Source: Escherichia phage A73
Sequence record: OP778609
Length of the DNA: 64,000 bases
Reading direction: 5' to 3' (one strand)
Shown here: positions 16,703-45,868 of the stretch, one piece after another
Layout of the letters: each line of letters starts with the position of its first letter
Position numbering within the stretch: position 1 is the stretch's first letter
Translations under genes and position numbers: made by a program
Notes under the pieces: model-generated
Databases searched by the model: none
Told to the model about the DNA's origin: nothing
The model's input: only the letters and a program-made list of their open reading frames with translations

Positions 16703-16720
16703 GAGAAAAGAGAAGATATC

Positions 16721-17588: not shown

Positions 17589-17594
17589 AAAGTA

Positions 17595-17622: not shown

Positions 17623-17670
17623 GTATCACATAGGGGCGACAAGCGCCCCGCCTAACAGAGAGATAGAATC

Positions 17671-17949
17671 ATGACCATCGCCAAATTATCCACCGAAGAA
17701 ATCGAACAAGTGTTAACTACTAACCTGGAACAATGGAAACGTGAGGCAGATATACAATCAGCAAAATGGCTTAACGAGAAGTTAACACCGGATGATCTGA
17801 GTAAGATTATAGATCCTCAATTCTATGAAGATATTCACGACACGGCGTTATCCGTTGAGGATGTACTCGATAAGCATTACATTGCTACTGATTTGCAGGT
17901 TTACGGGCGTAAAAACTTTATTACTATTCACGACATTTACAATAACTAA
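17671..17949 (+). CDS. hypothetical protein, paralog B (92 aa)
   Basis: paralog of ORF 16721. Confidence 0.6.
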   Translation: MTIAKLSTEEIEQVLTTNLEQWKREADIQSAKWLNEKLTPDDLSKIIDPQFYEDIHDTALSVEDVLDKHYIATDLQVYGRKNFITIHDIYNN

Positions 17950-17984
17950 GGGCGGCAACGCCCTACAACTAAAAGGGTAATATT

Positions 17985-18179
17985 ATGACGTTAGCAACAT
18001 GCACCGGATCAAAAATTGCTTGCTTTGAGTTTATGGAAGACTATGAAACGACAGCTATCACCGATCAATATATCACCGTGATCACGCGTGACGGTATCGC
18101 CTGGCATGTTCCGGTTTATGATGGGGATACCTATGAAGTCACCGACAGCGGCGGCAATACAGCTATCTTTGTTGTCTAA
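17985..18179 (+). CDS. hypothetical protein (64 aa)
   Basis: ATG with AAAGGG RBS; preceded by hairpin GGGCGGCAACGCCC. Confidence 0.5.
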   Translation: MTLATCTGSKIACFEFMEDYETTAITDQYITVITRDGIAWHVPVYDGDTYEVTDSGGNTAIFVV

Positions 18180-18192
18180 GGGGGGAAACACT

Positions 18193-18420
18193 ATGCACAA
18201 TAACATCATTACCGATCGTGCCGCTACTATGCGCCCTGGCGATCGGGCACGTTTACAGATCGGCGCTTATCCGTTCCCTACCTATGACTTTTGCAAAGTA
18301 ACCGCTATCGAAAACAATCCCTTTGATCCTGATACCGTGATCATCTGGTACGAAGGAAAGGGAAATAAATTTGAAGACATTTTGGGGCGGGATGAGCATA
18401 TCAATATTATTCGTTACTAA
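18193..18420 (+). CDS. hypothetical protein (75 aa)
   Basis: internal ATG of track ORF 18088 preceded by GGGGGG. Confidence 0.5.
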   Translation: MHNNIITDRAATMRPGDRARLQIGAYPFPTYDFCKVTAIENNPFDPDTVIIWYEGKGNKFEDILGRDEHINIIRY

Positions 18421-18538
18421 TCGCCACCTAACAGCCTAAATAGTAGGAGGCAATGCAATCCCCTACTCAATGAGAATGGAGCGCCCTGGCTTATGCTGGG
18501 GCGTTCTACGTTACAGCAAAATAATTTTAAAAATACAC

Positions 18539-18567
18539 TTGACGTTCGCCAGGTGAGCGGGTATATT
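18539..18567 (+). promoter_or_regulatory. sigma70 promoter TTGACG-17-TATATT with leader hairpin
   Basis: CACGTAGG start; hairpin GCGGCAATAGTGCCGC (about 18580-18595). Confidence 0.6.
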
Positions 18568-18616
18568 TTATCACGTAGGGCGGCAATAGTGCCGCTCACT
18601 GACTGGAGCTATCATT

Positions 18617-19018
18617 ATGGCCTTTACAATCACCTCTTACACTGACGTTGCCAACATTGCTAAAACTTTCGGCCCTGAAGCCCTTAAGTATGCGGTATCC
18701 AATGGTAAACTAACGAAAGAGCAATGTTACCTGATTGGAAGCTGTAAACGTTGGGCGGCATCTCGTAACATCGAGATTGAAAACGTAAATGATGGTAACA
18801 TCGAGTATAGCGTTGATGCAGTATTCAAGGCCGTGTATTTGGGCGGTATCTACAATACCAATCTTAATGATGTTCGTATCGTTCGCACTGGTTTTGGGGC
18901 TTATGATGTTCCAGTCCGCGAAGCTATGGAAAAAGGTTATATTAATCCAGCTATTTTAAGTATGATCATGACTGAGGCCAAAGAACGTAACGAAGTACGG
19001 GCCATCCTGGGCCTGTAA
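18617..19018 (+). CDS. hypothetical protein (133 aa)
   Basis: ATG with GGAG RBS. Confidence 0.6.
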   Translation: MAFTITSYTDVANIAKTFGPEALKYAVSNGKLTKEQCYLIGSCKRWAASRNIEIENVNDGNIEYSVDAVFKAVYLGGIYNTNLNDVRIVRTGFGAYDVPVREAMEKGYINPAILSMIMTEAKERNEVRAILGL

Positions 19019-19039
19019 TGAAATATTAATCGAAAACTA

Positions 19040-19067
19040 TTGACACGGATCGTCAATATGCTAATAT
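19040..19067 (+). promoter_or_regulatory. sigma70 promoter TTGACA-16-TAATAT with leader hairpin
   Basis: CACGTAGG start; hairpin GCGGCAATATCGCCGC (about 19080-19095). Confidence 0.6.
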
Positions 19068-19122
19068 TTATCACGTAGGGCGGCAATATCGCCGCTCACC
19101 CCTTAAAAGAGCGAGATCTAAA

Positions 19123-19338
19123 ATGGCGTTAACAAAACAAGAAATCATCGACCGCATCAAAGAGTCAACTGGCGAGAATATTGGTAATGGTTTAATTGTT
19201 AAAGTTCTTGATTATTCAAATAATCCCCTGGCACCGGAACCAGTGGCTTACAAATTATCCTGGATATCCGTATTTAGTGGTAAGCGTACAAGATGCGTAT
19301 ACTATCCGAACACCGTGGGGCGTCAGTACTGTAAATAA
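19123..19338 (+). CDS. hypothetical protein (71 aa)
   Basis: ATG downstream of promoter and hairpin. Confidence 0.5.
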   Translation: MALTKQEIIDRIKESTGENIGNGLIVKVLDYSNNPLAPEPVAYKLSWISVFSGKRTRCVYYPNTVGRQYCK

Positions 19339-19398
19339 AGGGCACTTTAATATTAATAAGGGGCGGCAACGCCCCAGGTCAACCAAAGGGAAACAACA

Positions 19399-19605
19399 AT
19401 GAGTATTGCAATGATTAGCTCATCCGACATTAAAAAGGCTTTATCTGTATTGCGCTATCACCATAGAAGGAAGGTAATCAATGACGAGAGCTATCTAGAT
19501 TCATCGTTAGAAAGCGATACGTTGGAAGCCATTTCAAAATTATCTGATTTGCATAAACGCATGACCGAAAGCAACCGATCCGACTTCATAGGGGGCGAAA
19601 TATGA
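19399..19605 (+). CDS. hypothetical protein (68 aa)
   Basis: ATG with AAAGGG RBS; starts MSIAM like next ORF. Confidence 0.5.
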   Translation: MSIAMISSSDIKKALSVLRYHHRRKVINDESYLDSSLESDTLEAISKLSDLHKRMTESNRSDFIGGEI

Positions 19606-19862
19606 GTATTGCAATGTTAATCAATACCGTAGAAGAGGCGAAAGCATTAAAGTTACGTGTTGAACTGATTGATCAACCAGGTGGAGATCTCCTTGTACAA
19701 ATCTATCCCCCAAAGGATGATTCTGGCGCTTATGATTGGTGCTACTCTGACACGTTCGAACAAGTAGACATTAAAGCAATAACATCATTTATCAACAGGG
19801 CTATACTTGAGCAAACGATAGAACTTAACGGGATGTTAAAAACACCCTGGCACATTTACTGA
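19602..19862 (+). CDS. hypothetical protein (86 aa)
   Basis: ATGA overlap with upstream ORF. Confidence 0.5.
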   Translation: MSIAMLINTVEEAKALKLRVELIDQPGGDLLVQIYPPKDDSGAYDWCYSDTFEQVDIKAITSFINRAILEQTIELNGMLKTPWHIY

Positions 19863-19873
19863 GTTCGACAAAA

Positions 19874-19900
19874 GGGCTTGACTTGTTCAGCCCTTTTTTG
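19874..19900 (+). terminator. rho-independent terminator
   Basis: GGGCT..AGCCC stem followed by TTTTTT. Confidence 0.7.
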
Positions 19901-20026
19901 CTATTCTTATCAAACGGGCGGCACCTGGGAACAGGGGGAGGTAATCACTGGACGACTCCGCTATACAGTGATAGTAAATAGCTATCAATAATCTCCAAAA
20001 ATAAAATAAAACCTATCGAGTCTTTA

Positions 20027-20055
20027 CAATTCTTTCTGTTGACACAACAACCGCA
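20027..20055 (+). promoter_or_regulatory. sigma70 promoter TTGACA-17-TATTAT driving an ORF-free transcript
   Basis: no ORF longer than about 10 codons between 20062 and 20340. Confidence 0.5.
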
Positions 20056-20341
20056 TTACAGTATTATTTATCTCGTAGGGCAGCGAAGCAGTGATGTAAA
20101 GTAGTTACTCTATGATGTAAGTTCTGAGAAGTCGAATCCGATAAAGTATCAGAAAGTTTCTAAGTTTTCGAATCGTCCAGATGAAAAAGGCTGGCAAGTG
20201 TTGAGAAAGGGCACGTTGAGTAAGTCCTGAACAGGGGCGCTCCTAGACACCTTCTACTGAGATTGCGATCGAAGTGTTAAACTGTGAGAAACAAAAGAGC
20301 GCTAGGAAAGAAAGAAACAAGAAAAGAAGTTAAAAAGATTG

Positions 20342-20370
20342 TTGACACAAAAGTAAGTTGTATACTATTA
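20342..20370 (+). promoter_or_regulatory. sigma70 promoter TTGACA-17-TATTAT
   Basis: followed by CTCGTAGGGCA start and ORF 20416. Confidence 0.5.
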
Positions 20371-20415
20371 TATCTCTCGTAGGGCAAACATTCAAAACAT
20401 CAAAAAGGGTACAAA

Positions 20416-20691
20416 ATGTTACAACTTAACGCTAAATTAGACAAAGAAATCACTGAATTTTGGGATATGGTAGTAGCTACTGATGTGGACGGTGTAGCAA
20501 GTCCTTACCTCAATAACATCGAGTATCACAATGTTGCCGCTATCAATGCAGAACACAAAGAGAAAGGCGGTGCTGATAAATTTGCTAAAAGCAATGGCTT
20601 CACTGATGCTAATCACATGATGCAATCAGTATTGTGGCAAGCTCAAGAAGATTTCGAAGAAAAAACTCTTGAATTTGCCAGACGCTCATAA
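20416..20691 (+). CDS. hypothetical protein (91 aa)
   Basis: ATG with AAAGGG RBS. Confidence 0.55.
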   Translation: MLQLNAKLDKEITEFWDMVVATDVDGVASPYLNNIEYHNVAAINAEHKEKGGADKFAKSNGFTDANHMMQSVLWQAQEDFEEKTLEFARRS

Positions 20692-20746
20692 TAGAATAAT
20701 CAAACGGGCCGAAAGGCCCACTAACTGACCTAACAGGATTAACATC

Positions 20747-21016
20747 ATGAATCGCATCGACCAGCTTAAAGTAGTTCAGCATATGGCTTACCGTATCCTT
20801 GAAGTTCAGAAAGGGAGCAAAAAAGAAGTATGTGAGAAGGCTTATAAGGTATTCAGCCACAAAGCTGATGATTGGAAGTTGCAGAAAGTCAAAAAGGCCG
20901 ATATCCTGGGCTACCTTGAGGATGAGATCCGCCTTGCGGAGCAAAAACAGATTCGTCGTGATGAGGCAGAACATAACCAGGCCTGGCAGGAGTGGTTTAA
21001 AGGGTATACTAAGTAA
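20747..21016 (+). CDS. hypothetical protein (89 aa)
   Basis: ATG with AGGAT RBS; charged coiled-coil-like. Confidence 0.5.
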   Translation: MNRIDQLKVVQHMAYRILEVQKGSKKEVCEKAYKVFSHKADDWKLQKVKKADILGYLEDEIRLAEQKQIRRDEAEHNQAWQEWFKGYTK

Positions 21017-21025
21017 TATCGAAAA

Positions 21026-21055
21026 CGGGGGGTTATATGCCCCCTTTGTAAATAT
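21026..21055 (+). terminator. hairpin GGGGGG-loop-CCCCC plus T-rich run
   Basis: inverted repeat then TTTGTAAATATT. Confidence 0.45.
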
Positions 21056-21079
21056 TCCATTAATTTACAATTCCCTCTA

Positions 21080-21109
21080 TTGACAAGAAAGTCAATTTTG
21101 CAGTATAGT
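21080..21109 (+). promoter_or_regulatory. sigma70 promoter TTGACA-18-TATAGT
   Basis: hexamers upstream of ORF 21150. Confidence 0.5.
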
Positions 21110-21149
21110 TATATCTCTAGCAGCAAACAACAAAACAAAGGACAACGAC

Positions 21150-21569
21150 ATGAACATCAAATCAACTAATCCGGCTTACTCTTTCGATAACGCTTTTTGT
21201 CACGGTAGTGCCGCCAAAGGTTTTGAAATTGATGGTAAACTGGTTATCGTCAATGTTGATGGGGAAGAGGTTGCAGTTTATCCAGTGGCAGACGTTAAAA
21301 GCCGTTTACAATGCCGCATGGATGTTAACGAATACCGCCTTGATCCGGTTCGTGTCGTTGCCCTGGTACTGGAAGAAGAAATTAAAGCAATGCAGCACAG
21401 CAACAAATTTATCGGCGATGCACAGGACAACATGAAAGTAAGCCGCCACAAAGTTAATGAAGCACTGAAAGATTTTGGCTTTAAAGATCTAGTTATCAAA
21501 CGTGATGAAAAATTTCGCTTTCGTAATGATCTGGCAAATCGCTACTATGAAATCTATGAAGCACTTTAA
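21150..21569 (+). CDS. hypothetical protein (139 aa)
   Basis: ATG with AAAGGA RBS. Confidence 0.6.
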   Translation: MNIKSTNPAYSFDNAFCHGSAAKGFEIDGKLVIVNVDGEEVAVYPVADVKSRLQCRMDVNEYRLDPVRVVALVLEEEIKAMQHSNKFIGDAQDNMKVSRHKVNEALKDFGFKDLVIKRDEKFRFRNDLANRYYEIYEAL

Positions 21570-22661: not shown

Positions 22662-23022
22662 CGCTCAGGCTATTGATGGCCCTGATGGAGTCGCTCCTGT
22701 ACAGTTGGAATAGTTCACAGTTGGATAGTAACAAGTTGGTATTATTCTTCCCACAAGTTGGAGCAGGCCAGAACTGGCGGGGCTTAGAGTCGCCTCACTT
22801 GTTGGACTGGAAGGAGGGCGCTTGCGGTGCGTATAAGTTGTATTATGTTAAATGCAGATCGAAATCGGTATTCTAAACCAGATTCAGAAGTCAATAGAAA
22901 TCTTTAACTTTATTGTTGGGGCAGCACAACATTTTTCTTGACAAGTCGAATCAAAGATGTATTGTGGATTGAAAATAAATGAAGATAATGCTTGACTTCT
23001 TGGATATTTTGAAAACATCGGA

Positions 23023-34851: not shown

Positions 34852-35369
34852 AACGGTATGTCCTCGTCAACAATAAATTTTATAGCATTCTTTACAGCCG
34901 CTTTATTCAGATGTTGAACACGCTGGAAGAACATTAGGTTCAAGTCAAGAAGAATATCATCATCTCCGTACAACGCCGTGAAAAGATCAAGCTCTTCATC
35001 TGTCGGATGCGTGGGATTCTCAAATAAGCCCTCAAACACCACCTGGGCCTCATTTCTTTTAGCCAGCGTGGTTGAGTCTCGATAGATATTTAATACCGTG
35101 TGTACATCATCTACGCTTAGGATTTTGACACATTCCAGATCTCCTGTGTCACCATCGAGATAAAGAGTGATCGCAGGAGTTGACCAATTTGATTCACTTA
35201 TTGCATAAACGTAGATGCTTTTGCGATTACCAACTGCAATAGACTCTTCAATTTTCTTTTCTGCCGCCTTAAAGAAAGGTTGGTGTTTGATCCAATGCTC
35301 CCAACCAATCCAACGAGCACCCTTACCATACGCATTCAGCACATGATTCTCAATGTTACGTTTACTCAT
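34848..35369 (-). CDS. hypothetical protein, same motif family (173 aa)
   Basis: GLFENPTHPTDEELDLFTALYGDD. Confidence 0.55.
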   Translation of the reverse strand: MSKRNIENHVLNAYGKGARWIGWEHWIKHQPFFKAAEKKIEESIAVGNRKSIYVYAISESNWSTPAITLYLDGDTGDLECVKILSVDDVHTVLNIYRDSTTLAKRNEAQVVFEGLFENPTHPTDEELDLFTALYGDDDILLDLNLMFFQRVQHLNKAAVKNAIKFIVDEDIPF

Positions 35370-35381
35370 TTAAAACCCCCA

Positions 35382-35415
35382 TAAAAGAAAAGCCAGCCAC
35401 CTTTCGGTGACTGGC
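35382..35415 (-). terminator. rho-independent terminator
   Basis: minus-strand GCCAGTCACC-GAAA-GGTGGCTGGC followed by TTTTCTTTT. Confidence 0.7.
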
Positions 35416-35421
35416 CTAGAG

Positions 35422-35880
35422 TTAGCTACTAATCACCACGAATGCAGTAACTATAGCATACAGAAATCCAATTGCAACAAAAATTATCATAATGGGGTCA
35501 GAGGTTACTCGCTTAAGTTTTCCTAAGAAAGTTGATCGGTATTTGTGTTCCTTCTCCATTTTGTTTATCAAAATGATGAAAGAGTTGATATGAATATCTT
35601 CAGCACTCTCTGCAAAAGGTGTGTACTTGAACGTACCTTCTGTATTTGCAACAAAGCTGCGATGATACTTTTTACCGTCATAACTTTCTATAAGAAGACC
35701 ATCCTTTGTCACCCGATAACTGACTGAACGGAACTTGTCATAAAAAACGTATGCCCTGAATCCATCTTGATCGGGAACAGCCTTTCTGACGTAGCCGTCA
35801 AAAAACTCCAATCTCTTTCCAGAATTCAGTTCCAAGTTGTCAGCTAACATAGGGAGTTGACTTACGTATGTAAAGTACAT
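35422..35880 (-). CDS. tail-anchored membrane protein (152 aa)
   Basis: C-terminal TM PIMIIFVAIGFLYAIVTAFVVI; ATG at 35880 preceded by GGAAGGA (track start 35889). Confidence 0.5.
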   Translation of the reverse strand: MYFTYVSQLPMLADNLELNSGKRLEFFDGYVRKAVPDQDGFRAYVFYDKFRSVSYRVTKDGLLIESYDGKKYHRSFVANTEGTFKYTPFAESAEDIHINSFIILINKMEKEHKYRSTFLGKLKRVTSDPIMIIFVAIGFLYAIVTAFVVISS

Positions 35881-36025
35881 AATGATCATCCTTCCACTAA
35901 GCTGAAATCATTTTATCATATTATGAAAAAATACAACAGCGAAGATCGGTCATGAACACTATGTTGTTAATTTTTACAACAGGACTCCAAAAAAGTATTT
36001 AAATCACTTAAATCGATTTTAATAC

Positions 36026-36061
36026 ATAGAAAATACCTATGGACCAGATCTGACCCATAGG
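36026..36061 (-). terminator. terminator: 26-bp near-palindrome plus T-rich run
   Basis: CCTATGG..CAGATCTG..CCATAGG then TATTTTCT on minus strand, downstream of ORF 36082. Confidence 0.55.
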
Positions 36062-36081
36062 CTATACCTTAATGTGAAATT

Positions 36082-36660
36082 TTATTCATTTCCCCGATAT
36101 TTTTGAATTGCGATCGAAGTCCTTGGTTCAGCCAGTCCAGTTCCATATGCATACCATTTGCCAGTGAGTGTTTTTCGAGCACCGTAGGACCCAATCTCCA
36201 TGTCGTCACAATAAACATCGTAACCGATCGGGGTCTTAACTAAAAAGAGTACATTACGAGGAATCCCTAAGAGGGTAAACATCGATATGGCATCTTTTGC
36301 GATCTCGTGAGAAATCTTCTCTGCATTCTTTTTACTGGTTGCACTTCTAAACAGTTCCATCTTTAAGAAGATATTGAAATGAATATCATCAAGAACCATC
36401 TCATCACGGAAGCATGGGGTCACAGCCATCCAACTGCCATCTTCCAACTTCCCTTCTTTGTCGAGTTGGAGGAATGATTGCTCTGCGGAAGCCACTGCAT
36501 ATTTCCCGTTCTGGACAATTCGAAGATCAGTAACATCTTCGGGGCATGTATGGTCCATAGCATCATCATCCACATAGCTTGGGACAACCTTATCATTGAA
36601 ACCTTTACATTTCCACCAACTGTGGGCATCAATAAACAATGTGAAGTCGATGTTTGACAT
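36082..36660 (-). CDS. hypothetical protein (192 aa)
   Basis: ATG (MSNIDF..) preceded by GCGAGG; track ORF starts at GTG 36690. Confidence 0.5.
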   Translation of the reverse strand: MSNIDFTLFIDAHSWWKCKGFNDKVVPSYVDDDAMDHTCPEDVTDLRIVQNGKYAVASAEQSFLQLDKEGKLEDGSWMAVTPCFRDEMVLDDIHFNIFLKMELFRSATSKKNAEKISHEIAKDAISMFTLLGIPRNVLFLVKTPIGYDVYCDDMEIGSYGARKTLTGKWYAYGTGLAEPRTSIAIQKYRGNE

Positions 36661-36661
36661 T

Positions 36662-37165
36662 TTAGCCTCGCTTACCATTCTGGAATGCACGTTTAGTAAT
36701 TTTTGACATAACCATCAGGTCTTCTATTGAAGTGCTTGGATGATACTTATTCAGGTAGGCTTCCATAGCACCGACCAGATCAGAAAGCTCTACCAACTCC
36801 ATGATCTTACATTTTTGTTTAGCTGCATCCTTGAGTTCATCAAGTTCTTCTTGAATCTTAGTGATCTCTCCAAGCTCTCCGCGAGGGAAAGTATCCAGAT
36901 GATAACCAGGTTTTTGTTCTTCAATACCCTCATGTCCGACAACACGAAATTTTCCGGCAGCGAAACGCCAAACACCTTCAAAATACACAATGTAATGTTC
37001 CGACTCTACAATGAAGATAGTGTCGAAATTTTTAAATTTAAAAAATCCTTCGACAAGATTATCTTCTGTACTGAAACTTCCTAAGAAGTTGAGTTCTTGC
37101 TCCGTATGAAATTCCATAACCATATTTTCGTTCTGGAGTTTCGTCAGCAATTTTAAAATTTTCAT
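36662..37165 (-). CDS. putative MazG-like nucleotide pyrophosphohydrolase-domain protein (167 aa)
   Basis: C-terminal helix pair with EELDELKDA..ELVELSDLVGA resembles MazG/HisE-type metal-binding helices; ATG 37165 preceded by GAGGAG. Confidence 0.35.
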   Translation of the reverse strand: MKILKLLTKLQNENMVMEFHTEQELNFLGSFSTEDNLVEGFFKFKNFDTIFIVESEHYIVYFEGVWRFAAGKFRVVGHEGIEEQKPGYHLDTFPRGELGEITKIQEELDELKDAAKQKCKIMELVELSDLVGAMEAYLNKYHPSTSIEDLMVMSKITKRAFQNGKRG

Positions 37166-37176
37166 TTTCTCTCCTC

Positions 37177-37665
37177 TTATGGGCAACACCGTGGAGATCT
37201 TCCACAGAAGAATTGCCAATTGGTTTCTGAGTCTTTGTAATTTACAAACCCTATCCTTCCGCACCCTTGTCCACTACAAACAGCCTCACGAGGATGATAG
37301 TCTATACTACAAGAGTGTGGATGGTCAAATGCTTCTCGTATTTCAACACATAGTCGGCTTAACCAGGCGAACATTTTTGGCATAGAAGCCTCAAGAAGTT
37401 TAAGTTCGTCGATCGTAGGTTTGTCTTTCTCAAGGAAGAAGTCATCTATCTCGGAAAACAAAATAACGTTTTGAACTATCCCGTCAGTTACCTTGTAAGA
37501 GAACTCCTCAGTAAGCCTCACGGTAACTTCCTCTATCAGTTCTTTTTCATTATCTTGATCTTTTGCCAGTCTTTCCTCAATCCATCGGATAATGAAGAAT
37601 CTTTCTCTCTGAACATCCATGTTCAAAGTGTTGATTATTTTTTCATAGATTAGGTTTCCTTCCAT
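37177..37665 (-). CDS. hypothetical protein with C-terminal Cys-rich zinc-finger-like tail (162 aa)
   Basis: HPHSCSIDYH..CSGQGCGR..CGRSPRCC; also carries FLEKDKPTIDELKLLEASMP family motif. Confidence 0.5.
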   Translation of the reverse strand: MEGNLIYEKIINTLNMDVQRERFFIIRWIEERLAKDQDNEKELIEEVTVRLTEEFSYKVTDGIVQNVILFSEIDDFFLEKDKPTIDELKLLEASMPKMFAWLSRLCVEIREAFDHPHSCSIDYHPREAVCSGQGCGRIGFVNYKDSETNWQFFCGRSPRCCP

Positions 37666-38777
37666 ACCTTGTCTTGTGCCTCCAGGATAAGTTTTTCAAC
37701 AATCTTCAGATCTGTTTTCTTTGGTAAGCTCGATTGCTTATAAAGAACATCTGTGATCATTTTATCTTTTTCTTCAGCCCAGTCAACAATTTCTTCATAG
37801 CGGTATTCACCATTTCGGATTGCGAGGAGTTCTTCAGCGTCTGGTCGATTCACTAAAACTTTACCTTCTGTGAGGATTTCTTCACCCATCCGAAGAAGCC
37901 GGACCAAATGCATAGCATGTTTAGTGTCGTAACCGAACTTCTCTTCCAGTTCATGACGCTTCTCGTTACGATTCTTAACCCATTCCCAATAGTTGTGGTG
38001 TTTCTCCTTGGCCCATTTATGATCGTCAGCACAATACTTAACAATCATCAGTGTCTTACCTCTTTTAACTTCATCTGGGATTTCTTCATAGTCCAGCTTA
38101 CGGATAGAACCATCTTTGTTAAACATAGGTTCAACATTTTCACGACGATCCTCTACAACGCCGTAAATGTTACTGCCGTAATGAACCAAAGTACAGAAGC
38201 CTTCCATGTTTTTAAATTTACGAACAAAGTCTTCGTACTTCAACTCACCTTCTCCGAGATAGCTCTGCACCAGACGGAAATAGTCAAATTGAGTTGGTGG
38301 CTCTTTTGGTTGCGGATTATTAATGTGTTTGTTGTGACCCTTGATCCGCTTTAACTGAGACATTGCATAACCACTGAAGCGAAATGCAACTTCACGAGAC
38401 AGTAAGGAGTAGAAATGTTCTTTCATCTCTTTCCAAGCTTCGTGCTCGTACAATGTGGCTTTCGGATCAGTAAAACCCAGTTCAATGATATTTGGGTTCA
38501 TCTTCGAAAACAGTTGAAGGAAAGTTCCCAATTCGTAGATCTTAGCATCCTCTTCACCAGGGATGTTTAATTCAGTAACCTCTTTGAATGGGGTACGAAC
38601 CACATTTGGGGTTGCAACAAAAACCCCACGGATATCAATATCACTACCTTCGTTATTCGTACCATACGCATGAGATCCTGCCAGACTCAACATCAGTACC
38701 TTCGCCACGTCTGGATGATTTTCCATCTTCTCTACGATACTTTTTACCTTTCCAGCACTCACAACTGAATTTTCCAT
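37650..38777 (-). CDS. Pol-beta-superfamily nucleotidyltransferase (375 aa)
   Basis: GS-x10-DIDI motif (AGSHAYGTNNEGSDIDIRGVF); ATG 38777 preceded by GGAGGA. Confidence 0.6.
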   Translation of the reverse strand: MENSVVSAGKVKSIVEKMENHPDVAKVLMLSLAGSHAYGTNNEGSDIDIRGVFVATPNVVRTPFKEVTELNIPGEEDAKIYELGTFLQLFSKMNPNIIELGFTDPKATLYEHEAWKEMKEHFYSLLSREVAFRFSGYAMSQLKRIKGHNKHINNPQPKEPPTQFDYFRLVQSYLGEGELKYEDFVRKFKNMEGFCTLVHYGSNIYGVVEDRRENVEPMFNKDGSIRKLDYEEIPDEVKRGKTLMIVKYCADDHKWAKEKHHNYWEWVKNRNEKRHELEEKFGYDTKHAMHLVRLLRMGEEILTEGKVLVNRPDAEELLAIRNGEYRYEEIVDWAEEKDKMITDVLYKQSSLPKKTDLKIVEKLILEAQDKVWKET

Positions 38778-38867
38778 TTATCCTCCAATCATGTAAGTCA
38801 CACAAGCCAACCCAGTTGGCCTGTTTAATCTTTATAAAGTTTACGCAGCTTGTGCAGTCTTTTTTAT

Positions 38868-39263
38868 TTATAGGCATTTCACACCATAAATGATCATCAA
38901 TACAACAAGTGTCAGTGTATAGATCAAACTCCCATAAAGTCCATGACTGGTGATTTTAAGCTTTTTCTTAAAGCACATCATTGTACTATAAATTACACCA
39001 GTCCAGTGAATCACTAAAATCGCGGTGGCAATATCTGAAACATTACCCGCCCAAAGCATCAGAGAGTATGAGAGGTACATTGCAAAACCTGATAGCAGGA
39101 ATGTAAACAAATAACCAATTACACTTTTCTTTTTCTGATATACGATTTTATTTTTCATGGTATCGATGTTCAGATTGTAATAGGCAACTGCCACTATCTG
39201 GATAATCAGCCCCAAGATAAAGAAAGAGATCAGTGTAACGTATTCAAAAATTGGTGCAGTCAT
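38868..39263 (-). CDS. integral membrane protein (131 aa, about 4 TM)
   Basis: four hydrophobic segments. Confidence 0.55.
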   Translation of the reverse strand: MTAPIFEYVTLISFFILGLIIQIVAVAYYNLNIDTMKNKIVYQKKKSVIGYLFTFLLSGFAMYLSYSLMLWAGNVSDIATAILVIHWTGVIYSTMMCFKKKLKITSHGLYGSLIYTLTLVVLMIIYGVKCL

Positions 39264-39661
39264 TATAATTTCTCCTCAATAATTTCAGAAATGAGATTCG
39301 AGATCTCGAAAGTTTCTAACTCTTCGACGTGTGACAAGCGCTGGAGGCGCTCGATAACAAAGTCTTTCTTCACAAATACATCCGACAAATGCTCAATGTC
39401 CTGCTTACCACGCATTCCGCTAACCAACTGCTTGTATCGGATGAGTTCAATATACTCCTCTTTAGACATTACTGTCAAGCGTTCATCTGCACAAATATGC
39501 AAAAATACTTGCTTGCTGTCCCAGTCAAATCCTCTGTACACTGCCTCTACTTCACGGCGTGGTGTCCCGCCCAGTGTTACATGACCAACCTCAACAGGGA
39601 TAGATACCTGATCATCAGGTCGGCACTGCTGCAACTCCTCAATCAATTCAGAAACTTTCAT
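39263..39661 (-). CDS. hypothetical protein (132 aa)
   Basis: ATG verified. Confidence 0.5.
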   Translation of the reverse strand: MKVSELIEELQQCRPDDQVSIPVEVGHVTLGGTPRREVEAVYRGFDWDSKQVFLHICADERLTVMSKEEYIELIRYKQLVSGMRGKQDIEHLSDVFVKKDFVIERLQRLSHVEELETFEISNLISEIIEEKL

Positions 39662-39663
39662 AG

Positions 39664-40119
39664 TTACCCCTGCTTAAGCTTGAAAGATTTAAATGCTTCG
39701 ATAAAGTCCATTTCTTTTTGCGTATACTTATGATCGATTGTATCAGCGAAAAGAGGGCAACGACCATCAACCAACTTCACATCCCACAGATGTTGAGGGA
39801 GAATAAATGCAATGGCTGTAAGTGCACCATTCAAAGAATCATTCTCCTCGCAGAAAAATGCGTAAGGAATCTTCTCTATGTTTGGAGCTAAAAATCCTTC
39901 TGCAAAATTAAGCATCTTAGATTGATAGCCTCCGTTCAACAAGATCATTGTTTGGTCTTTGCTTTGCCACTGATCTACAAGGTTGTATCTGTCATCATAT
40001 CGATCGGCATAGGCAAAGCCATAATGACCTACAAGGTTTGCTGCTGCATGTGCTGCTTGGATACCTGCTTGGATTCCCATCATATAGCTGTTTACCAATA
40101 CGTACATCCGAGTTTTCAA
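39664..40119 (-). CDS. hypothetical protein, possible PTH2-like peptidyl-tRNA hydrolase fold (151 aa)
   Basis: N-terminal VLVNSYMMGIQAGIQAAHAA loosely resembles PTH2 motif (..MGKGKIAAQCSHAA); TTG start; weak call. Confidence 0.25.
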   Translation of the reverse strand: MKTRMYVLVNSYMMGIQAGIQAAHAAANLVGHYGFAYADRYDDRYNLVDQWQSKDQTMILLNGGYQSKMLNFAEGFLAPNIEKIPYAFFCEENDSLNGALTAIAFILPQHLWDVKLVDGRCPLFADTIDHKYTQKEMDFIEAFKSFKLKQG

Positions 40120-40436
40120 TTCTTACCTCCGAAAATTCTTTTTGCAAATTTTTCATTACCTAACGTCATGTTGTAGAAAACTATAATTGAATAGACAATC
40201 CACGCAAGGACATAAAATAAAATCAAGAAAGGCCAGCCCACAAACCAAAACACTGTCATTATTAACCAGCCCGTCATAAGGAGTTTATAATTAACATTCC
40301 CGTGATTTAAAGGGTCAAGTAAGTTACTGTTCTCTGGCAGGGTGATACGAAACCCACCTTGACGAAGCTTGATCAAAAAGAACCAAGCAGCAGAACTTAT
40401 AATGCAACATAAAATATATATCAGTAATCCTGTCAT
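40116..40436 (-). CDS. small membrane protein, paralog (106 aa)
   Basis: shares AWFFLIKLRQGGF and WFVGWPFLILF with next ORF. Confidence 0.5.
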   Translation of the reverse strand: MTGLLIYILCCIISSAAWFFLIKLRQGGFRITLPENSNLLDPLNHGNVNYKLLMTGWLIMTVFWFVGWPFLILFYVLAWIVYSIIVFYNMTLGNEKFAKRIFGGKN

Positions 40437-40762
40437 TTTTTAACTCCGAAGATCTTAGATAGTAATTTATCATTCCCGATAGTTACACCACAAAAACTTT
40501 TTACTCCGTATACTAGATACGACCCGATTGTAACACAGATAATGATCGGATAAACAAGATACCAAAAGAATGTTGCAAGTATCCACCCTGCCATCACCAT
40601 ACGTAAATTTACATTTTCGTTATTCAGTGGCTCCAGGATATAAATATCCTCACAATCTTTTGGGAAGGGGATGTTGAACCCCTTCTGCCGTAATTTGATC
40701 AGTAAGAACCAAAGTGGGCAACTAATAAGACAACCTATTAAATAACCTTCAACCATTTTCAC
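40433..40762 (-). CDS. small membrane protein, paralog (109 aa)
   Basis: tandem duplicate of ORF 40116. Confidence 0.5.
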   Translation of the reverse strand: MKMVEGYLIGCLISCPLWFLLIKLRQKGFNIPFPKDCEDIYILEPLNNENVNLRMVMAGWILATFFWYLVYPIIICVTIGSYLVYGVKSFCGVTIGNDKLLSKIFGVKK

Positions 40763-41999
40763 TCTCCTTCAACTTGTCAAGATATTGTGTAACGTATCTT
40801 ACTTTTACATTTCGGATTCTGCTCTTGATCTCATCTGGACGTCCCGCGAATTTTTCAGAAATCTCTTTACTTTCTTTTGAGATTGCAACACTGTTCTGAA
40901 TAATCCCCGCCAGTGCTGAGAATAATACCAGTGGTTGACTGTAGTTGTCAAACATTTTTTCAGGTCCACGCCCACGAGCATCACAGATGCAAGCGTCAAT
41001 AAATTCAGAGAGGAATGCTTGGTCCTTTTCACCACGTAAGGCTACTAACAAGTCATAAACTTTCTTTGGCTTCATTTCTTTGATACGGTGAAGTCGTGTA
41101 TGATGCTCAGTTACAGCTAAAGCCAACTTCTTCCAATTATTGGGGACACCAAAGCGATCACAAACTTGTTCAGTTAACTTGATACCATGTTCTTCGTGAC
41201 CGTGCAGTTTACCCGTTAGCCAATAAATACATTTACCTAAGTCGTGACAAAGGACTGCCCACTTCACAGCCTCACTTGCACGAGTCGCCTGGGCATAATC
41301 CATGCAAAGTAAAGTGTGAACAAATGCATCACCTTCAGGATGGTGCTCCTTGGGTTGAACAACATCGTATAAATCCACAAGCTCAGGAAATTCTCCCAGT
41401 TGAGTCAACATACGGATCATTACCGAAGGTTTATTCATTTCTGACTGATCACTGAAGCATTTCTTAATCTCTGCAAATTTACGCTCTTTTGGCAATGCAC
41501 TTAAATCCACACTCCGACACATTAGCCAAGTGTCAGGATCAATTGTAAACTCACCGCCGTATCTGGCATGTAATCTGGCTAGTCGGTACACACGTAAAGG
41601 GTCTTCGATAAATGCTTTAGTGGATACACAACGTAACCGACGAAGTTCAATATCCATTGCACCATTACAAGGGTCGATAATTTCGCCCGTGGAAATATCC
41701 TTGGCGATCGCATTAATGGTTAAATCTCTTCGCATCAGGTCTTGTTCAATTGTAACGTCTGGAGAGAACACAACTTCGAAATCGTGATAACCAGGGCCTG
41801 TTGATCTTTCCGTTCGAGCAAGAGCATACTCTTCTTTAGTGTTCGGTTCAAGGTACACAGGGAAAGCTGCACCAACCTTAGTAAATCCCTTCTCAATCAT
41901 TTCTTCATGGGTCGCTCCAACTACAACGTAGTCACGATCCTTGCTTTCAACACTCATTAGTTCATCGCGAACTGCACCACCTACCAAGTAAACTTTCAT
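40749..41999 (-). CDS. cca: tRNA nucleotidyltransferase (CCA-adding enzyme) with HD domain
   Basis: head-domain motif YLVGGAVRDEL; HD motif LCHDLGK; ATG 41999 (MKVYLVGG) preceded by GGAGAAGAAGGA; track start 42047. Confidence 0.75.
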   Translation of the reverse strand: MKVYLVGGAVRDELMSVESKDRDYVVVGATHEEMIEKGFTKVGAAFPVYLEPNTKEEYALARTERSTGPGYHDFEVVFSPDVTIEQDLMRRDLTINAIAKDISTGEIIDPCNGAMDIELRRLRCVSTKAFIEDPLRVYRLARLHARYGGEFTIDPDTWLMCRSVDLSALPKERKFAEIKKCFSDQSEMNKPSVMIRMLTQLGEFPELVDLYDVVQPKEHHPEGDAFVHTLLCMDYAQATRASEAVKWAVLCHDLGKCIYWLTGKLHGHEEHGIKLTEQVCDRFGVPNNWKKLALAVTEHHTRLHRIKEMKPKKVYDLLVALRGEKDQAFLSEFIDACICDARGRGPEKMFDNYSQPLVLFSALAGIIQNSVAISKESKEISEKFAGRPDEIKSRIRNVKVRYVTQYLDKLKESENG

Positions 42000-42037
42000 T
42001 CCTTCTTCTCCCATTCTTTCCAATTCTGCATGTCCGC

Positions 42038-42202
42038 TCATAGCCATCCCCTTTCTTTATACCCTTTTGTAAATCCTGATTCCCAATCTTGAAATTGCTC
42101 CGGCATGGTGTTTGGATTATACGGGTTGTTTCTCTTGAACATCCCAAACTTGAATCCAGCGGCTCGGCCCTTCTCGTATGCTGAACTGCTTTTTCTTGTC
42201 AT
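42038..42202 (-). CDS. small basic protein (54 aa)
   Basis: ATG 42202 preceded by GAGGAG; track start 42232. Confidence 0.45.
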   Translation of the reverse strand: MTRKSSSAYEKGRAAGFKFGMFKRNNPYNPNTMPEQFQDWESGFTKGYKERGWL

Positions 42203-42528
42203 ACTCTTTCTCCTCTTAAATTTAAAGACCAATCTTTTATTTCTTCTTTCCAGTTCGTATTTCTCTTAATGTCTTGCTTTTGACCGCGAAGATAGTTAAT
42301 GATCTCAAGCGGGTCTTGCTTAACAAAAGAAATATTGTCGATCGGGCACTCAACTAACTTAAGCATCCTTTCAAAACGATTATACTCATCTTCTGATTTC
42401 GGTGCAACAGGAATAACATCATAATCTTCAAGATTGTCGAGAGTTTCAAGGGTAACCCTCATCTCGTAGCCTTCTAATCTCTTTGTCTTGATACCAAACA
42501 CTCTTCGAAAGTAAATGTAATATTTCAT
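42199..42528 (-). CDS. hypothetical protein (109 aa)
   Basis: ATG verified. Confidence 0.5.
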   Translation of the reverse strand: MKYYIYFRRVFGIKTKRLEGYEMRVTLETLDNLEDYDVIPVAPKSEDEYNRFERMLKLVECPIDNISFVKQDPLEIINYLRGQKQDIKRNTNWKEEIKDWSLNLRGERV

Positions 42529-42554
42529 TATGTTCTCCTACTTAATGATCATCA

Positions 42555-42582
42555 TTATACACATCCCTGAATTCAAGTCAAC
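42555..42582 (-). promoter_or_regulatory. sigma70 promoter TTGACT-16-TATAAT (minus strand)
   Basis: consensus hexamers; -35 overlaps U tract of terminator 42582-42607. Confidence 0.6.
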
Positions 42583-42607
42583 AAAAAAGGCCACCCGAAG
42601 GTGACCT
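42582..42607 (-). terminator. rho-independent terminator AGGTCACC-TTCG-GGTGGCCT + T6
   Basis: seen directly on minus strand after stop of methyltransferase gene. Confidence 0.8.
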
Positions 42608-42613
42608 TTAAAT

Positions 42614-43123
42614 TTAAGGGTGAATCCAGTAAAAAGGTTTTGTTAAACCAAGTTTACCTTTCGGGTCCCAAATGAAGTAGGCATACGCCGCACCATCTGT
42701 TTTCCCATCCTCAGTAAAAGAGGGTCGCTTGGATAGAGTAACCAAGTGATCAACAGGATATTCCTTCCAGAACTCCACACGTTTGGTACTCTCAAGGAAA
42801 CCTAAACGAAGCAGCATTATCACCACATCAGCATCCTTGTGAGCCTTCTCTACAAACTCTTGAGCTAAATTATAAGGTGGGTTAGTTAACACACAATCTA
42901 CCTTATTGTATTTAGTTGCAAGATAATCAACACCTTCTTGAATCTCTCCCCAAGCTGAACCAATTGGCATTTCATTATAAAAACGTCCAGAGGCTCTGCA
43001 AGGTTCCAGATAAGTCCAATCCTGACGGATTGGAACTAAATTCAAGAAAGCATCTACTGCCCATTTCGGAGTTTCATAGCGATCATTTTCACGGCGCTCT
43101 GCTTTAGGTTTCAATGCTGCCAC
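42614..43123 (-). CDS. DNA N6-adenine methyltransferase
   Basis: motif IV TNPPY (CVLTNPPYNL); 169 aa; GTG start preceded by AAGGGGG. Confidence 0.7.
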   Translation of the reverse strand: MAALKPKAERRENDRYETPKWAVDAFLNLVPIRQDWTYLEPCRASGRFYNEMPIGSAWGEIQEGVDYLATKYNKVDCVLTNPPYNLAQEFVEKAHKDADVVIMLLRLGFLESTKRVEFWKEYPVDHLVTLSKRPSFTEDGKTDGAAYAYFIWDPKGKLGLTKPFYWIHP

Positions 43124-43125
43124 TC

Positions 43126-43971
43126 TTATTTGCCCCCTTCTTTCGCCGCAGTGATGATCTGTTCAATTAACTCATCACGATAATAAACGTACTGTTCAAC
43201 ACCGAAACATTCCGCAATCTCGTCTAGTTCGTCGAGGTTGTACTCGTCAAAGTCTCGTGGGTTAAGAGTAAAGATGTTGAATTTTTTGGCGTAGCCTTCG
43301 TCGAGGACGATTTCAAATTCTCCCTCTCCGATTTCCTTCGCATCATCAACATCACTCGATTCGATTGACCCTTCAACCTTAATCCCCCCTGTATTTTGTT
43401 GATCGGCTTCCATTTGCTTTTTAATTGCTTCATCTTCAGCGGTCAAACGGGCTTGCATCTGAGAGGAAGTGAAGTAAATTTCGCCAGCACGATCAAACAG
43501 TTCAACGAGTTCATCTTCTGTCATAACACCCTTGTACAGATCGTAGTATTTCTCTTTGAACAGGTCTTTGTAGAAATCGCTACGTTTAAATACCAGTGCT
43601 GAATCACCACCCATACTCATCTGAACGTTGTGGAACATGTAATGAGAACCTGGACGACAAATTCGAACATGACCAGACAAGAAGATCATTGTTGCAGCAC
43701 TTGCCACTTCACCAATACCGTGTGTTACAACAGTCGCCTTTGTTTCAGAGATCGCTGTCATGTACATATCTGCGATATCACAATAACCACCACAAGAAGT
43801 AATGTACAGATTTACAATATCACCTTCAGGTGCTGAACGAATCAGGTCAACAGCCTCGATATGTGCTTCAGGTGAATTGTGCAGATCCGTAACATAAATA
43901 CGCCAATCGTTAGAAGTTACTGGAGACACCCAAATGTTTTTTGCCGGACCATTCATTACGATTTCTTCCAT
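43126..43971 (-). CDS. ClpP-family serine protease-like protein (281 aa)
   Basis: YITSCGGY..GEVASAATMIFLSG..MFHN matches ClpP core; acidic C-terminal extension. Confidence 0.6.
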   Translation of the reverse strand: MEEIVMNGPAKNIWVSPVTSNDWRIYVTDLHNSPEAHIEAVDLIRSAPEGDIVNLYITSCGGYCDIADMYMTAISETKATVVTHGIGEVASAATMIFLSGHVRICRPGSHYMFHNVQMSMGGDSALVFKRSDFYKDLFKEKYYDLYKGVMTEDELVELFDRAGEIYFTSSQMQARLTAEDEAIKKQMEADQQNTGGIKVEGSIESSDVDDAKEIGEGEFEIVLDEGYAKKFNIFTLNPRDFDEYNLDELDEIAECFGVEQYVYYRDELIEQIITAAKEGGK

Positions 43972-44462: not shown

Positions 44463-44780
44463 TTAAATTCCGATTAAATATTTAAACTTCCCGTCGTTCT
44501 CTGCGATCTTGTGGATTACATAGAACCAATTTTCAATTCCGTCTTCATCTTCCTCTTTCACACGATCACCAGTTTTTAACTCAACCTCGGAAACGTACTC
44601 CTTACTTTCAAGGAAATACTTCCACTGAACCATGTCTTTAAAATTACAGATTAGTTTATTTTTGCCATCTGTCGTCCAAAGGTCCTGATTGACCCACATA
44701 CCAACAACGAAATTCTTTTCTTTCTTAGGACGACCAAGTGCATAAGTGTTGTTTAACATCTTTGCTTTATCTAAGACCAC
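44463..44780 (-). CDS. hypothetical protein (105 aa)
   Basis: GTG start preceded by GGAG. Confidence 0.45.
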   Translation of the reverse strand: MVLDKAKMLNNTYALGRPKKEKNFVVGMWVNQDLWTTDGKNKLICNFKDMVQWKYFLESKEYVSEVELKTGDRVKEEDEDGIENWFYVIHKIAENDGKFKYLIGI

Positions 44781-45384
44781 GTTTTGACTCCAAGTTAACT
44801 AAGAAACTCTCAAGCACTGCGATGTTGTCTTCTTTCCAAAGATTAAGTGTTCTTACACCATTCTTCTTTGCCAGATTGACTGCTGTTGCAGTGCCGCCTT
44901 TAGGATTACCCGTCTTTGTTTCCTTTGCGTAGTATATCACAAATTTACTTTGCATCAAGTAGGCATTTGAAAGATTTTTACCAAAAATTTGGTGTACGTT
45001 TCTTTCGTGTAATTTCCTTGCCCCTTGACTCAACTTGTCCCATCCACCATGAACTTCCTTTATCCATTCCCATCGCATTTCTGTATGTTCTGGAAATTCT
45101 TTATCAATCGTGTTCAGGGAGATATTATACAGATCTTTAAGTCCTTGTCCACCTTTAAAGTTGTCCCAAGGAACATATATCTCTGCAAGTTTGCTCGGTG
45201 ATTGAGTCATATTGCAATCTTCATGAAACTTCTGCATACCTCTTTGGAAAGCTGCATCTGCACCATCTGCACCGCCAGATCGTAATGTATATCCGACCCT
45301 TGCTAATCTCCAACCCGCATCTTCCATAATTTTTAATACTTCTTCAGGGGCCTCCCTTGAACCTATTCCTGTATAAGCTGGCAC
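44767..45384 (-). CDS. DprA/Smf-like Rossmann-fold (SLOG-type) protein (about 206 aa)
   Basis: GIGSREAP..LRSGGADGADAAF motif; GTG 45384 preceded by AAGGAGG; track ORF extends to 45498, overlapping nrdG. Confidence 0.45.
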   Translation of the reverse strand: MPAYTGIGSREAPEEVLKIMEDAGWRLARVGYTLRSGGADGADAAFQRGMQKFHEDCNMTQSPSKLAEIYVPWDNFKGGQGLKDLYNISLNTIDKEFPEHTEMRWEWIKEVHGGWDKLSQGARKLHERNVHQIFGKNLSNAYLMQSKFVIYYAKETKTGNPKGGTATAVNLAKKNGVRTLNLWKEDNIAVLESFLVNLESKRGLR

Positions 45385-45385
45385 T

Positions 45386-45868
45386 TTAACCTCCTTCATC
45401 TTCAGTTGACCAGTACCCATTAACTTTTTTCCAAAGTCTTTGGTTATCTGATCCCCTGAATCTTTTAGTTGTAGGTTTGTTTTCATCATACTTGCCATCC
45501 ATGATTAAGTCAACGTATTTCTTTATTTCCTCATCTAAGTCTTGAAAAAGATACCCTGTCCACACCATGATATCTTTACTCTCACCAAAGCACGACTTTA
45601 CTTCCTTGATAATTCTTTTTACAACATCAATATTCTCAGGGTCAAGAGGTTCTCCACCCATAATTGACAATCCACTGATAAAATTTCGAGAAAGATCTTT
45701 TTTCAAACTCTCCATATCTTCATCTGTGAATTCTTTCCCATACCTGTATGACCAAGCCTTTTGGTTAAAACAACCCTTACACTTATGACTGCATCCACTA
45801 ACCCAGAGAGAGGTTCTTACCCCCTCTCCATTGATGAAGTCTGTTCTTTCATATCCGCAAATGTTCAA
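45386..45868 (-). CDS. nrdG: anaerobic ribonucleotide reductase activating enzyme (radical SAM)
   Basis: CxxxCxxC (CSHKCKGC); immediately downstream of nrdD; TTG start. Confidence 0.75.
   Translation of the reverse strand: MNICGYERTDFINGEGVRTSLWVSGCSHKCKGCFNQKAWSYRYGKEFTDEDMESLKKDLSRNFISGLSIMGGEPLDPENIDVVKRIIKEVKSCFGESKDIMVWTGYLFQDLDEEIKKYVDLIMDGKYDENKPTTKRFRGSDNQRLWKKVNGYWSTEDEGG

Follow-up and report, generated by a model that had tools for sequence, protein, structure and literature searches.

Predicted tRNA acceptor-end enzymes in a likely transcription unit of Escherichia phage A73

Do the tRNA-related genes of a coliphage act together, and if so on which part of the tRNA? The question arises from a 64,000-nucleotide stretch of Escherichia phage A73 (record OP778609), referred to here as a whole as the window. 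An earlier note on this DNA had described a tRNA-directed module at window positions 37650–41999, consisting of a tRNA nucleotidyltransferase, a 375-amino-acid (aa) protein of the Pol-beta nucleotidyltransferase type and a 151-aa protein with loose similarity to PTH2. All three open reading frames (ORFs) exist as noted, on the minus strand. Our analysis identifies the component proteins with high confidence as a CCA-adding enzyme, an RlaP-family nucleotidyltransferase and a PTH2-fold protein. It is also probable, though well short of certain, that they belong to a conserved unit of W70-like Vequintavirinae phage in which several enzymes keep tRNA acceptor (3′) ends functional during infection.

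The 432-aa product of the first of these genes has the domain structure of a class II CCA-adding enzyme, with a PolyA_pol head (Pfam, E 3e-19) and an HD domain (1.4e-8), in agreement with the original description of a full-length tRNA nucleotidyltransferase. It matches phrog_2244 (‘tRNA nucleotidyltransferase’) at 7e-132, and residues 17–423 align to positions 1–404 of the 409 in NCBIfam PRK10885 (‘multifunctional CCA addition/repair protein’) with a score of 381 bits. Identity to E. coli K-12 Cca is 43% over 355 aa (E 4e-88). The class II head motifs GGAVRD, DRD, RRDLTINA and EDPLR align with those of E. coli Cca, as do HPEGD...HTL and CHDLGK of the HD domain, and the relatives in the PDB are class II CCA and poly(A) polymerases. 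To judge from these alignments, the protein is a diverged but complete bifunctional Cca of the E. coli type. It shares the head/neck/HD architecture and motifs of the bacterial enzyme and differs from it in being phage-encoded, in having a C-terminal segment of ~70 residues that does not align and in scoring below the PRK10885 equivalog cut-off (381 versus 451 bits), although the match is full-length. The true start of the gene may be M17, at position 41999.

The 375-aa protein, which had been called unassigned, matches the RlaP family (Pfam PF10127) at 68.9 bits (cut-off 23, E 6.9e-19), compared with 20.7 bits for the generic NTP_transf_2 family. The RlaP model aligns to residues 15–145 only, and the protein matches phrog_388 at 8e-79. 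Homologues number more than 5,000, and PF10127 is found in 119 of the 120 listed, the exception being a 236-aa fragment. When a profile of 29 homologues is compared with T4 NrdC.11 by hhalign, the two align over 260 columns that include both domains (97% probability, E 5e-11). The GS-x10-DIDI motif is exactly as first reported (G34-S35-x10-D46-I-D48-I). Residues G34, S35, D46, D48 and E99 are invariant among the homologues, with E99 aligned to an Asp in NrdC.11, and an AlphaFold2 (AF2) model with a predicted local distance difference test score (pLDDT) of 91.4 contains helices at residues 250–374. Like the RlaP proteins of P. fluorescens and P. aeruginosa and T4 NrdC.11, the A73 protein belongs to PF10127, carries GS...DxD and a third acidic residue, and joins an N-terminal nucleotidyltransferase (NTase) domain to a C-terminal helical domain. 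Unlike these known members, it has Glu (E99) rather than Asp as the third catalytic residue, it is larger, with a β-rich insertion at ~165–250, and its neighbours are the CCA enzyme and the PTH2-fold protein, with no RNA ligase partner detected.

Pseudomonas RlaP attaches one or two nucleoside monophosphates (NMPs) to RNA 3′-OH ends, favours the 5′ half of a cleaved-tRNA mimic, works best with Mn2+ and is inactive on DNA or protein, according to a December 2025 preprint that also counts T4 NrdC.11 in the family (bioRxiv 10.64898/2025.12.29.696909). Family membership supports assignment of the 375-aa protein as a repair-type enzyme of RNA 3′ ends, one of the options raised at the outset, and by analogy it is predicted to add 1–2 NMP to RNA 3′-OH ends. 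The other options, a signalling enzyme resembling the cGAS/DncV-like nucleotidyltransferases (CD-NTases) or an aminoglycoside nucleotidyltransferase, are so improbable that we set them aside. Searches of the PDB by sequence, profile and Foldseek gave no solved RlaP structure, and the top Foldseek matches are indeed kanamycin nucleotidyltransferase ANT(4′) (E 1.6e-3), Hailong HalB and MntA. These matches reflect a minimal Pol-beta fold that all of the proteins share. Template-modelling (TM) scores are 0.2–0.3 (0.22–0.32), with ~165 of 375 columns aligned. For CdnD and CdnE, the Foldseek probability is 0.04–0.16 and the TM score 0.12–0.15, which rejects a CD-NTase fold. No aminoglycoside-NTase family is matched in Pfam, homology to T4 NrdC.11 is full-length, the RlaP score is far above that of NTP_transf_2, and there is no effector of the type found in CBASS, the antiphage systems that signal through cyclic oligonucleotides, and no resistance context.

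The gene after RlaP encodes a 162-aa protein that ends in a Cys-rich motif, CSGxGCG...FFCG..PRCCP (CSGQGCG...FFCGRSPRCCP here). In another phage an RlaP homologue (P0071) carries this 33-aa motif as a C-terminal fusion (61% identity, E 4e-10). The fusion points to a functional link between the 162-aa protein and RlaP and suggests that the motif is a zinc-ribbon-like accessory module of the nucleotidyltransferase.

The 151-aa protein is connected to PTH2 by its fold. Its AF2 model, built with 29 homologues as input, has a pLDDT of 91.4. A BFVD fold search with this model returns uncharacterised phage proteins (TM 0.65–0.86), followed by annotated viral peptidyl-tRNA hydrolases of Myrna, Atu_ph07, RaK2 and Klosneuvirus, which are the nearest annotated structures. 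Comparison of the family with the PDB by sequence and profile gave no link to Pth2. When the family is aligned directly to five bona fide Pth2 sequences taken from the PDB, hhalign reports a weak 22% probability and pairs Q21, H24 and W51 with Q24, H27 and W47 of Pth2. As judged by secondary-structure register, the invariant E91 falls at the place of the Pth2 Asp that follows strand 3 (D84 in P. horikoshii, D86 in S. solfataricus). The protein resembles archaeal and eukaryotic Pth2 in the α1 Q-x-x-H signature and the conserved Trp and, by the same register, probably in the acidic residue after β3. It differs in its low identity (14%), the lack of the Pth2 lysine, ~40 extra C-terminal residues and its own set of conserved residues absent from Pth2, of which Y12, I16, G19 and G63–G64 are invariant and Y65, N97 and G98 nearly so. 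At the level of the model, the PTH2 fold is established and peptidyl-tRNA hydrolase chemistry is plausible. The loose likeness to PTH2 seen earlier is borne out by structure search, with a Pfam match that stays below threshold, and the 375-aa protein is placed outside the aminoglycoside nucleotidyltransferases by the same kind of comparison. The 151-aa family comprises 2,521 representative clusters, and a search of 185,579 species genomes matched it twice, each time on a contig of a metagenome-assembled genome; it appears to be essentially restricted to viruses.

Gene neighbourhoods in other phages provide stronger evidence for a module than the promoter and terminator signals described below. 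We surveyed PTH2-like genes at 61 IMG/VR loci, which form 41 clusters at 60% identity with the window counted, and recorded partners within 10 kb. A CCA-type enzyme is found at 17 of the 61 loci, with a gap to the PTH2-like gene of 0.3–1.2 kb in Vequintavirinae-like phages and of 427 bp in an independent lineage (L046–L050). Thg1, a polymerase that repairs tRNA 5′ ends, lies 0.2–3 kb away at nine loci, Rnl1, Rnl2 or Pnkp is close by at seven, and arrays of 7–29 tRNA genes accompany four. A CCA enzyme accompanies RlaP at 17, and a PTH2-like gene at 11, of the best 80 phage RlaP loci. Thg1 and tRNA arrays are each absent from all 80, which gives a rough background for the PTH2-like linkage, and Rnl1 is nearby at just four. 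The order CCA/PTH2-like/RlaP is kept in relatives down to ~40–47% identity of the PTH2-like protein and ~50% of RlaP, and the tight cluster is repeated in the more diverged lineages L087, L114 and L119.

In A73, 12 minus-strand genes between ~42581 and 36035 make up one likely transcription unit (Table 1). The prediction follows from the signals that flank these genes, a terminator-like hairpin and then a promoter-like site at the upstream edge and a second terminator-like hairpin at the downstream edge, together with the overlapping or close packing of the genes. The promoter-like site has the top score in 35300–43300 and sits in the sole sizeable upstream intergenic gap. The genes of the originally proposed span are in place, and the predicted unit continues beyond it, down to 36035. 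The CCA gene had been placed two genes from the 375-aa gene; it is actually five genes from it and two genes from the 151-aa gene. The 64-aa ORF before the CCA gene has a sub-threshold match to ribosome modulation factor (Pfam RMF, E 0.018, 15.5 bits with a cut-off of 27.9, 43 of 53 profile positions). Paralogue 1 of the phrog_17692 membrane proteins is probably outside the enzymatic set because it is confined to the closest relatives.

Table 1. Genes and signals of the predicted transcription unit (window coordinates).
Feature	Position	Strand	Remark
Terminator-like hairpin closing upstream Dam-methylase gene	42586..42609	-	10-bp stem, 5 G-C pairs, T run after; upstream boundary
Sigma-70-like promoter TTGACT-16-TATAAT, predicted unit start	42554..42581	-	11/12 consensus
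109-aa ORF, first gene of unit	42199..42528	-	no significant Pfam family
64-aa basic ORF directly upstream of CCA gene	42038..42232	-	weak RMF likeness
Bifunctional CCA-adding enzyme (predicted), 432 aa	40749..42047	-	class II nucleotidyltransferase head + HD domain
Small membrane protein, paralogue 1 (phrog_17692)	40433..40762	-	closest relatives only
Small membrane protein, paralogue 2 (phrog_17692)	40116..40436	-	phrog match
151-aa PTH2-fold protein (phrog_3668), putative tRNA 3′-end esterase	39664..40119	-	virus-restricted subfamily
132-aa protein (phrog_12566)	39263..39661	-	no Pfam or NCBIfam family
131-aa predicted membrane protein (phrog_12739)	38868..39263	-	phrog match
375-aa RlaP-family (PF10127) Pol-beta nucleotidyltransferase	37650..38777	-	T4 NrdC.11 homologue
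162-aa protein, C-terminal Cys-rich motif	37177..37665	-	overlaps RlaP stop codon
200-aa protein, C-terminal ~85 aa MazG/HisE-like	36662..37264	-	phrog_6408 1e-35
202-aa minimal class II aminoacyl-tRNA synthetase (aaRS)-like core, last gene of unit	36082..36690	-	phrog_4806 5e-56
Terminator-like hairpin, predicted unit end	36035..36062	-	20 nt downstream of aaRS-like gene; 12-bp stem, T-rich tail

A recurrent pair of genes closes the unit. The 202-aa protein has 776 homologues and profile matches to the catalytic cores of SerRS (3e-6), PylRS and AspRS, with an invariant motif-2 Arg95 (TPCxR) and motif-3 Arg190 (GTGLAEPR). It falls short of the family cut-offs (Pfam tRNA-synt_2, E 0.044; NCBIfam serS, 20.9 versus 301 bits), and no anticodon- or tRNA-binding domain is present in this family of ~190–200 aa. 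The C-terminal ~85 aa of the 200-aa protein are predicted to form an all-α NTP pyrophosphohydrolase domain of the MazG/HisE-like type. Matches to phosphoribosyl-ATP pyrophosphohydrolase (PRA-PH) are weak in this family (21 of 24 members, best 8e-4), as are PDB profile matches to MazG-like 1vmg and PRA-PH, and the invariant residues E21, E22, E25, E41 and D44 (numbering of alignment A5) spell EExxE...ExxD. The aaRS-like and MazG-like genes are adjacent, in either order, at 77 of 80 IMG/VR phage loci, and one true fusion ORF was found (L215, 935–1786). Three or more tRNA genes are present at 24 of the 80 loci, and RNA-repair genes are often close too. A literature search for this pair found no report.

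A close relative of A73 supplies information on tRNA genes beyond the window. Escherichia phage W70 (OP778610, Vequintavirinae, 137 kb) is 100% identical to window 36000–42100, a region in which phages A7_1, A5-4, LTH01 and UPEC06 are 94–96% identical, and identity to W70 is 99.95–100% across window 24000–64000. In window 1–23000, identity to both W70 and A5-4 is only ~94–95%; small ORFs spanning 6.7 kb at 14694–21449 are missing in W70 and present in A5-4, A7_1 and UPEC06. The window is a mosaic relative to W70, and its source is a W70-like relative; equating it with W70 itself is wrong for the left part, on both of these counts. All genes of the cluster lie in a long leftward block that also holds genes for Dam methylase, a ClpP-like protein, NrdD/G, PhoH, NrdA/B and thymidylate synthase.

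A scan of the window with ARAGORN returns no tRNA gene, in line with the earlier note, and the data do not support any significance of this absence: W70 carries five (Met, Tyr, Gly, Gln and Pro), located 11.4–13.1 kb past the right end of the window. Provided that the source phage resembles W70 there, the absence is an artefact of where the window ends. All five W70 tRNA genes encode N-CCA at their ends, so the phage CCA enzyme is not needed to mature these tRNAs, and a role for the enzyme set in repair or turnover is favoured over one in maturation. Also in W70 (positions 22704–22790 of its record, L004, outside the window), a tRNA-like remnant lies between tRNA-Tyr and the next ORF; it contains GGTTCGAATCC, a T-arm consensus, and ends in ACCA, and ARAGORN does not call it.

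Homologues of T4 Rnl1, Rnl2 and Pnkp were sought by tblastn in the W70 genome and the window, where only chance matches appear (E of at least 0.14). RNA-ligase Pfam families are absent from the 20 proteins scanned (non-virion proteins of at least 280 aa plus smaller ones; no search was aimed directly at RtcB or 2H ligases), and the sole trace is a sub-threshold match (E 0.008) on DNA ligase. The T4 Pnkp–Rnl1 pathway, which counters PrrC, is similar in being a phage-encoded repair of host-inflicted tRNA damage. It differs in that the T4 kinase/phosphatase and ligase heal and seal breaks in the anticodon loop, whereas the A73 enzymes would act on 3′ ends, and in that homologues of Pnkp and Rnl1 were found in neither the window nor the genome of W70. 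These results divide the original proposal. A tRNA- or RNA-end-directed set, with linkage that recurs in other phages, is upheld. A counter to the anticodon nucleases PrrC and RloC is weakened, both by the failure to detect an RNA ligase or polynucleotide kinase and because the partners (CCA enzyme, PTH2 fold and, elsewhere, Thg1) act at the acceptor end and not at the anticodon loop. PADLOC gives no defence-family signal, only generic HD/Cas3 matches to the HD domain of Cca. A tRNA-pyrophosphorylating toxin of the RelA/SpoT-homologue type (toxSAS), hinted at by ‘PRPP synthetase’ and ‘GTP pyrophosphokinase’ annotations in UPEC06, finds no corresponding Pfam family among the window ORFs tested.

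A mechanism can be proposed in which the three enzymes would work on the same end of the tRNA. On a damaged or stalled tRNA, the PTH2-fold protein would free the 3′ end of an aminoacyl, peptidyl or N-blocked aminoacyl group. RlaP would restore one or two nucleotides, such as the discriminator base, at RNA 3′-OH ends trimmed beyond the reach of Cca, and the CCA enzyme would then restore C74-C75-A76; cleaning of phosphorylated ends may be the task of its HD domain. Since the acceptor end is where the CCA enzyme, PTH2 and Thg1 all work, we infer that RlaP restores over-trimmed tRNA 3′ ends; alternatively, host RtcB could be its partner. Host nucleases, toxins or defence systems that damage tRNA ends would be the likely selective pressure; the counter-defence role and the exact substrates of the set are inferred.

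Several observations weigh against acceptor-end maintenance as the function of this unit. The host already encodes Cca and Pth. The enzyme genes are interrupted by three small membrane proteins and two functionally uncharacterised proteins, and the promoter and terminators of the unit are consensus matches only. RlaP is defined by its association with RNA ligase, and here it stands without a detected ligase. At ~55 of the 80 phage RlaP loci, none of these partners is present within the DNA examined. The 151-aa protein scores below threshold on Pfam PTH2 (PF01981; 16.4 bits versus 23, E 0.011), with a match confined to the N-terminal half, and the position of the invariant lysine of Pth2 is taken by Gln17, a residue that varies within the family. 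This lysine, before helix 1, is K18 in S. solfataricus and K20 in P. horikoshii, and its catalytic role was reportedly described by Fromant et al. (2005). Because the protein is sub-threshold on PTH2 and lacks the lysine, its substrate may not be peptidyl-tRNA. A PTH2 fold recruited for a different reaction at RNA or nucleotide ends is a rather doubtful explanation, although several points favour it. Such a protein might remove a blocker other than an amino acid or an extra nucleotide, or bind tRNA ends without catalysis, and the poor Pfam score, the 22% hhalign probability, the variable Gln at the place of K20 and the family's own invariant set are all consistent with it. It fits less well with the Q21/H24/W51 positions common to Pth2, with an invariant acidic residue, E91, where secondary-structure register places the Pth2 Asp, and with peptidyl-tRNA hydrolases as the nearest annotated viral structures.

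The interruptions and the sparse RlaP linkage also bear on whether a module exists at all. The genes could merely be neighbours that share a stretch of auxiliary early genes: five small, unrelated genes lie among them, in most phages the aaRS-like/MazG-like pair moves independently of CCA and RlaP, and CCA and PTH2-like neighbours are missing from most RlaP loci. Chance proximity is nevertheless quite unlikely given that the CCA/PTH2-like/RlaP order is conserved across relatives, that independent lineages recreate the adjacency of a PTH2-like gene to a CCA enzyme or Thg1 with gaps of <1.5 kb, and that RlaP elsewhere carries, as a fusion, the Cys-rich motif encoded here by the gene that follows it. 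If the module is real, its purpose might still be ordinary. With host gene expression shut off and translation in high demand, phage Cca, PTH2-like protein and RlaP could boost normal tRNA turnover and ribosome recycling with no link to defence. This housekeeping supplement seems improbable to us, though it deserves more weight than the other alternatives. In function the CCA enzyme closely parallels host Cca, to which it is 43% identical and whose domain set it shares, and E. coli Cca is established to mend 3′ ends nibbled by exonucleases (cited in PMC12851939 as its ref. 54). The unit lies amid the nucleotide-metabolism genes NrdD/G, NrdA/B, PhoH and thymidylate synthase, and PADLOC, apart from the generic HD matches, reports nothing related to defence. 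On the other side, RlaP and Thg1-type partners are enzymes of repair and not of housekeeping, and a PTH2-like family that is virus-restricted and recurs beside RNA-repair genes suggests selection driven by conflict. The housekeeping supplement moreover invokes the same mechanism as acceptor-end repair under host attack; only the selective pressure differs.

Some other genes of the window merit mention. Three tandem paralogues (380, 377 and 399 aa; 26228–29726, minus strand) contain RCC1-like β-propeller repeats (Pfam WD40_RLD, E 2e-25 to 3e-10). A 243-aa protein at 44767–45498 (minus strand) combines a GGADGADAA motif with a weak Pfam match of the DprA/SLOG-like type (DNA_processg_A, E 6e-4). 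The ClpP-like protease at 43126–43971 (minus strand; Clp protease, 3.5e-8) has a long acidic C-terminal extension, and a DUF2201 metallopeptidase/VWA-like protein (9e-26) is encoded at 1938–3476 on the plus strand. At 63203–63847 (minus strand) lies the gene for a 214-aa NADAR-domain protein (Pfam, 6e-37). The NADAR family is linked to the reversal of ADP-ribosylation, and this protein may serve in counter-defence.

RlaP, CCA enzyme, Thg1 and PTH2 have been described as an RNA-repair toolkit of jumbo phages that follows the same logic (Iyer et al. 2021, PMC7824862). The A73 cluster shares the enzyme families of that toolkit and the logic of restoring RNA ends hurt by host effectors; it differs in belonging to a Vequintavirinae phage of ~140 kb and in forming a compact, probably co-transcribed cluster in which a ligase is not detected. 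With the toolkit already described, our finding is well supported and largely ordinary. What is added here is the compact ligase-less layout in a 140-kb coliphage, a quantified linkage of PTH2-like genes to CCA and Thg1, and the absence of the Pth2 lysine. Since no ligase is detected, the cluster stands apart from the heal-and-seal paradigm of T4. If it merely duplicates host housekeeping, the result is one of routine annotation.

More and more, tRNA is being recognised as a target of anti-phage immunity. Anticodon nucleases, PARIS, retron effectors and Schlafen-like nucleases are known examples, which Cas12a3 joined in 2026. Cutting of tRNA CCA tails by Cas12a3 is a demonstrated anti-phage mechanism, and its authors call the viral answer ‘yet unknown’ (PMC12851939). 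Phage tRNA genes cannot evade an attack on the universal CCA tail, and enzymatic repair of the tail would therefore be the obvious viral answer. The A73 cluster is a compact and genetically tractable candidate for such an answer, with three enzymes of clear predicted chemistry, and its phage can be plated on E. coli K-12. More speculatively, and at long odds in our own estimate, the lysine-less PTH2-fold family, repeatedly wired to polymerases of tRNA ends, may be a new ‘deblocking’ enzyme for tRNA acceptor ends that are damaged or chemically blocked, which together with RlaP and phage Cca would provide ligase-independent tail repair and escape from CCA-tail immunity; the mini-aaRS/MazG-like pair could contribute a further, as yet undescribed, tRNA- or nucleotide-directed activity. 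The cluster gives a biological context to two poorly understood families, the RlaP proteins of the T4 NrdC.11 type and the lysine-less PTH2-like proteins of phages.

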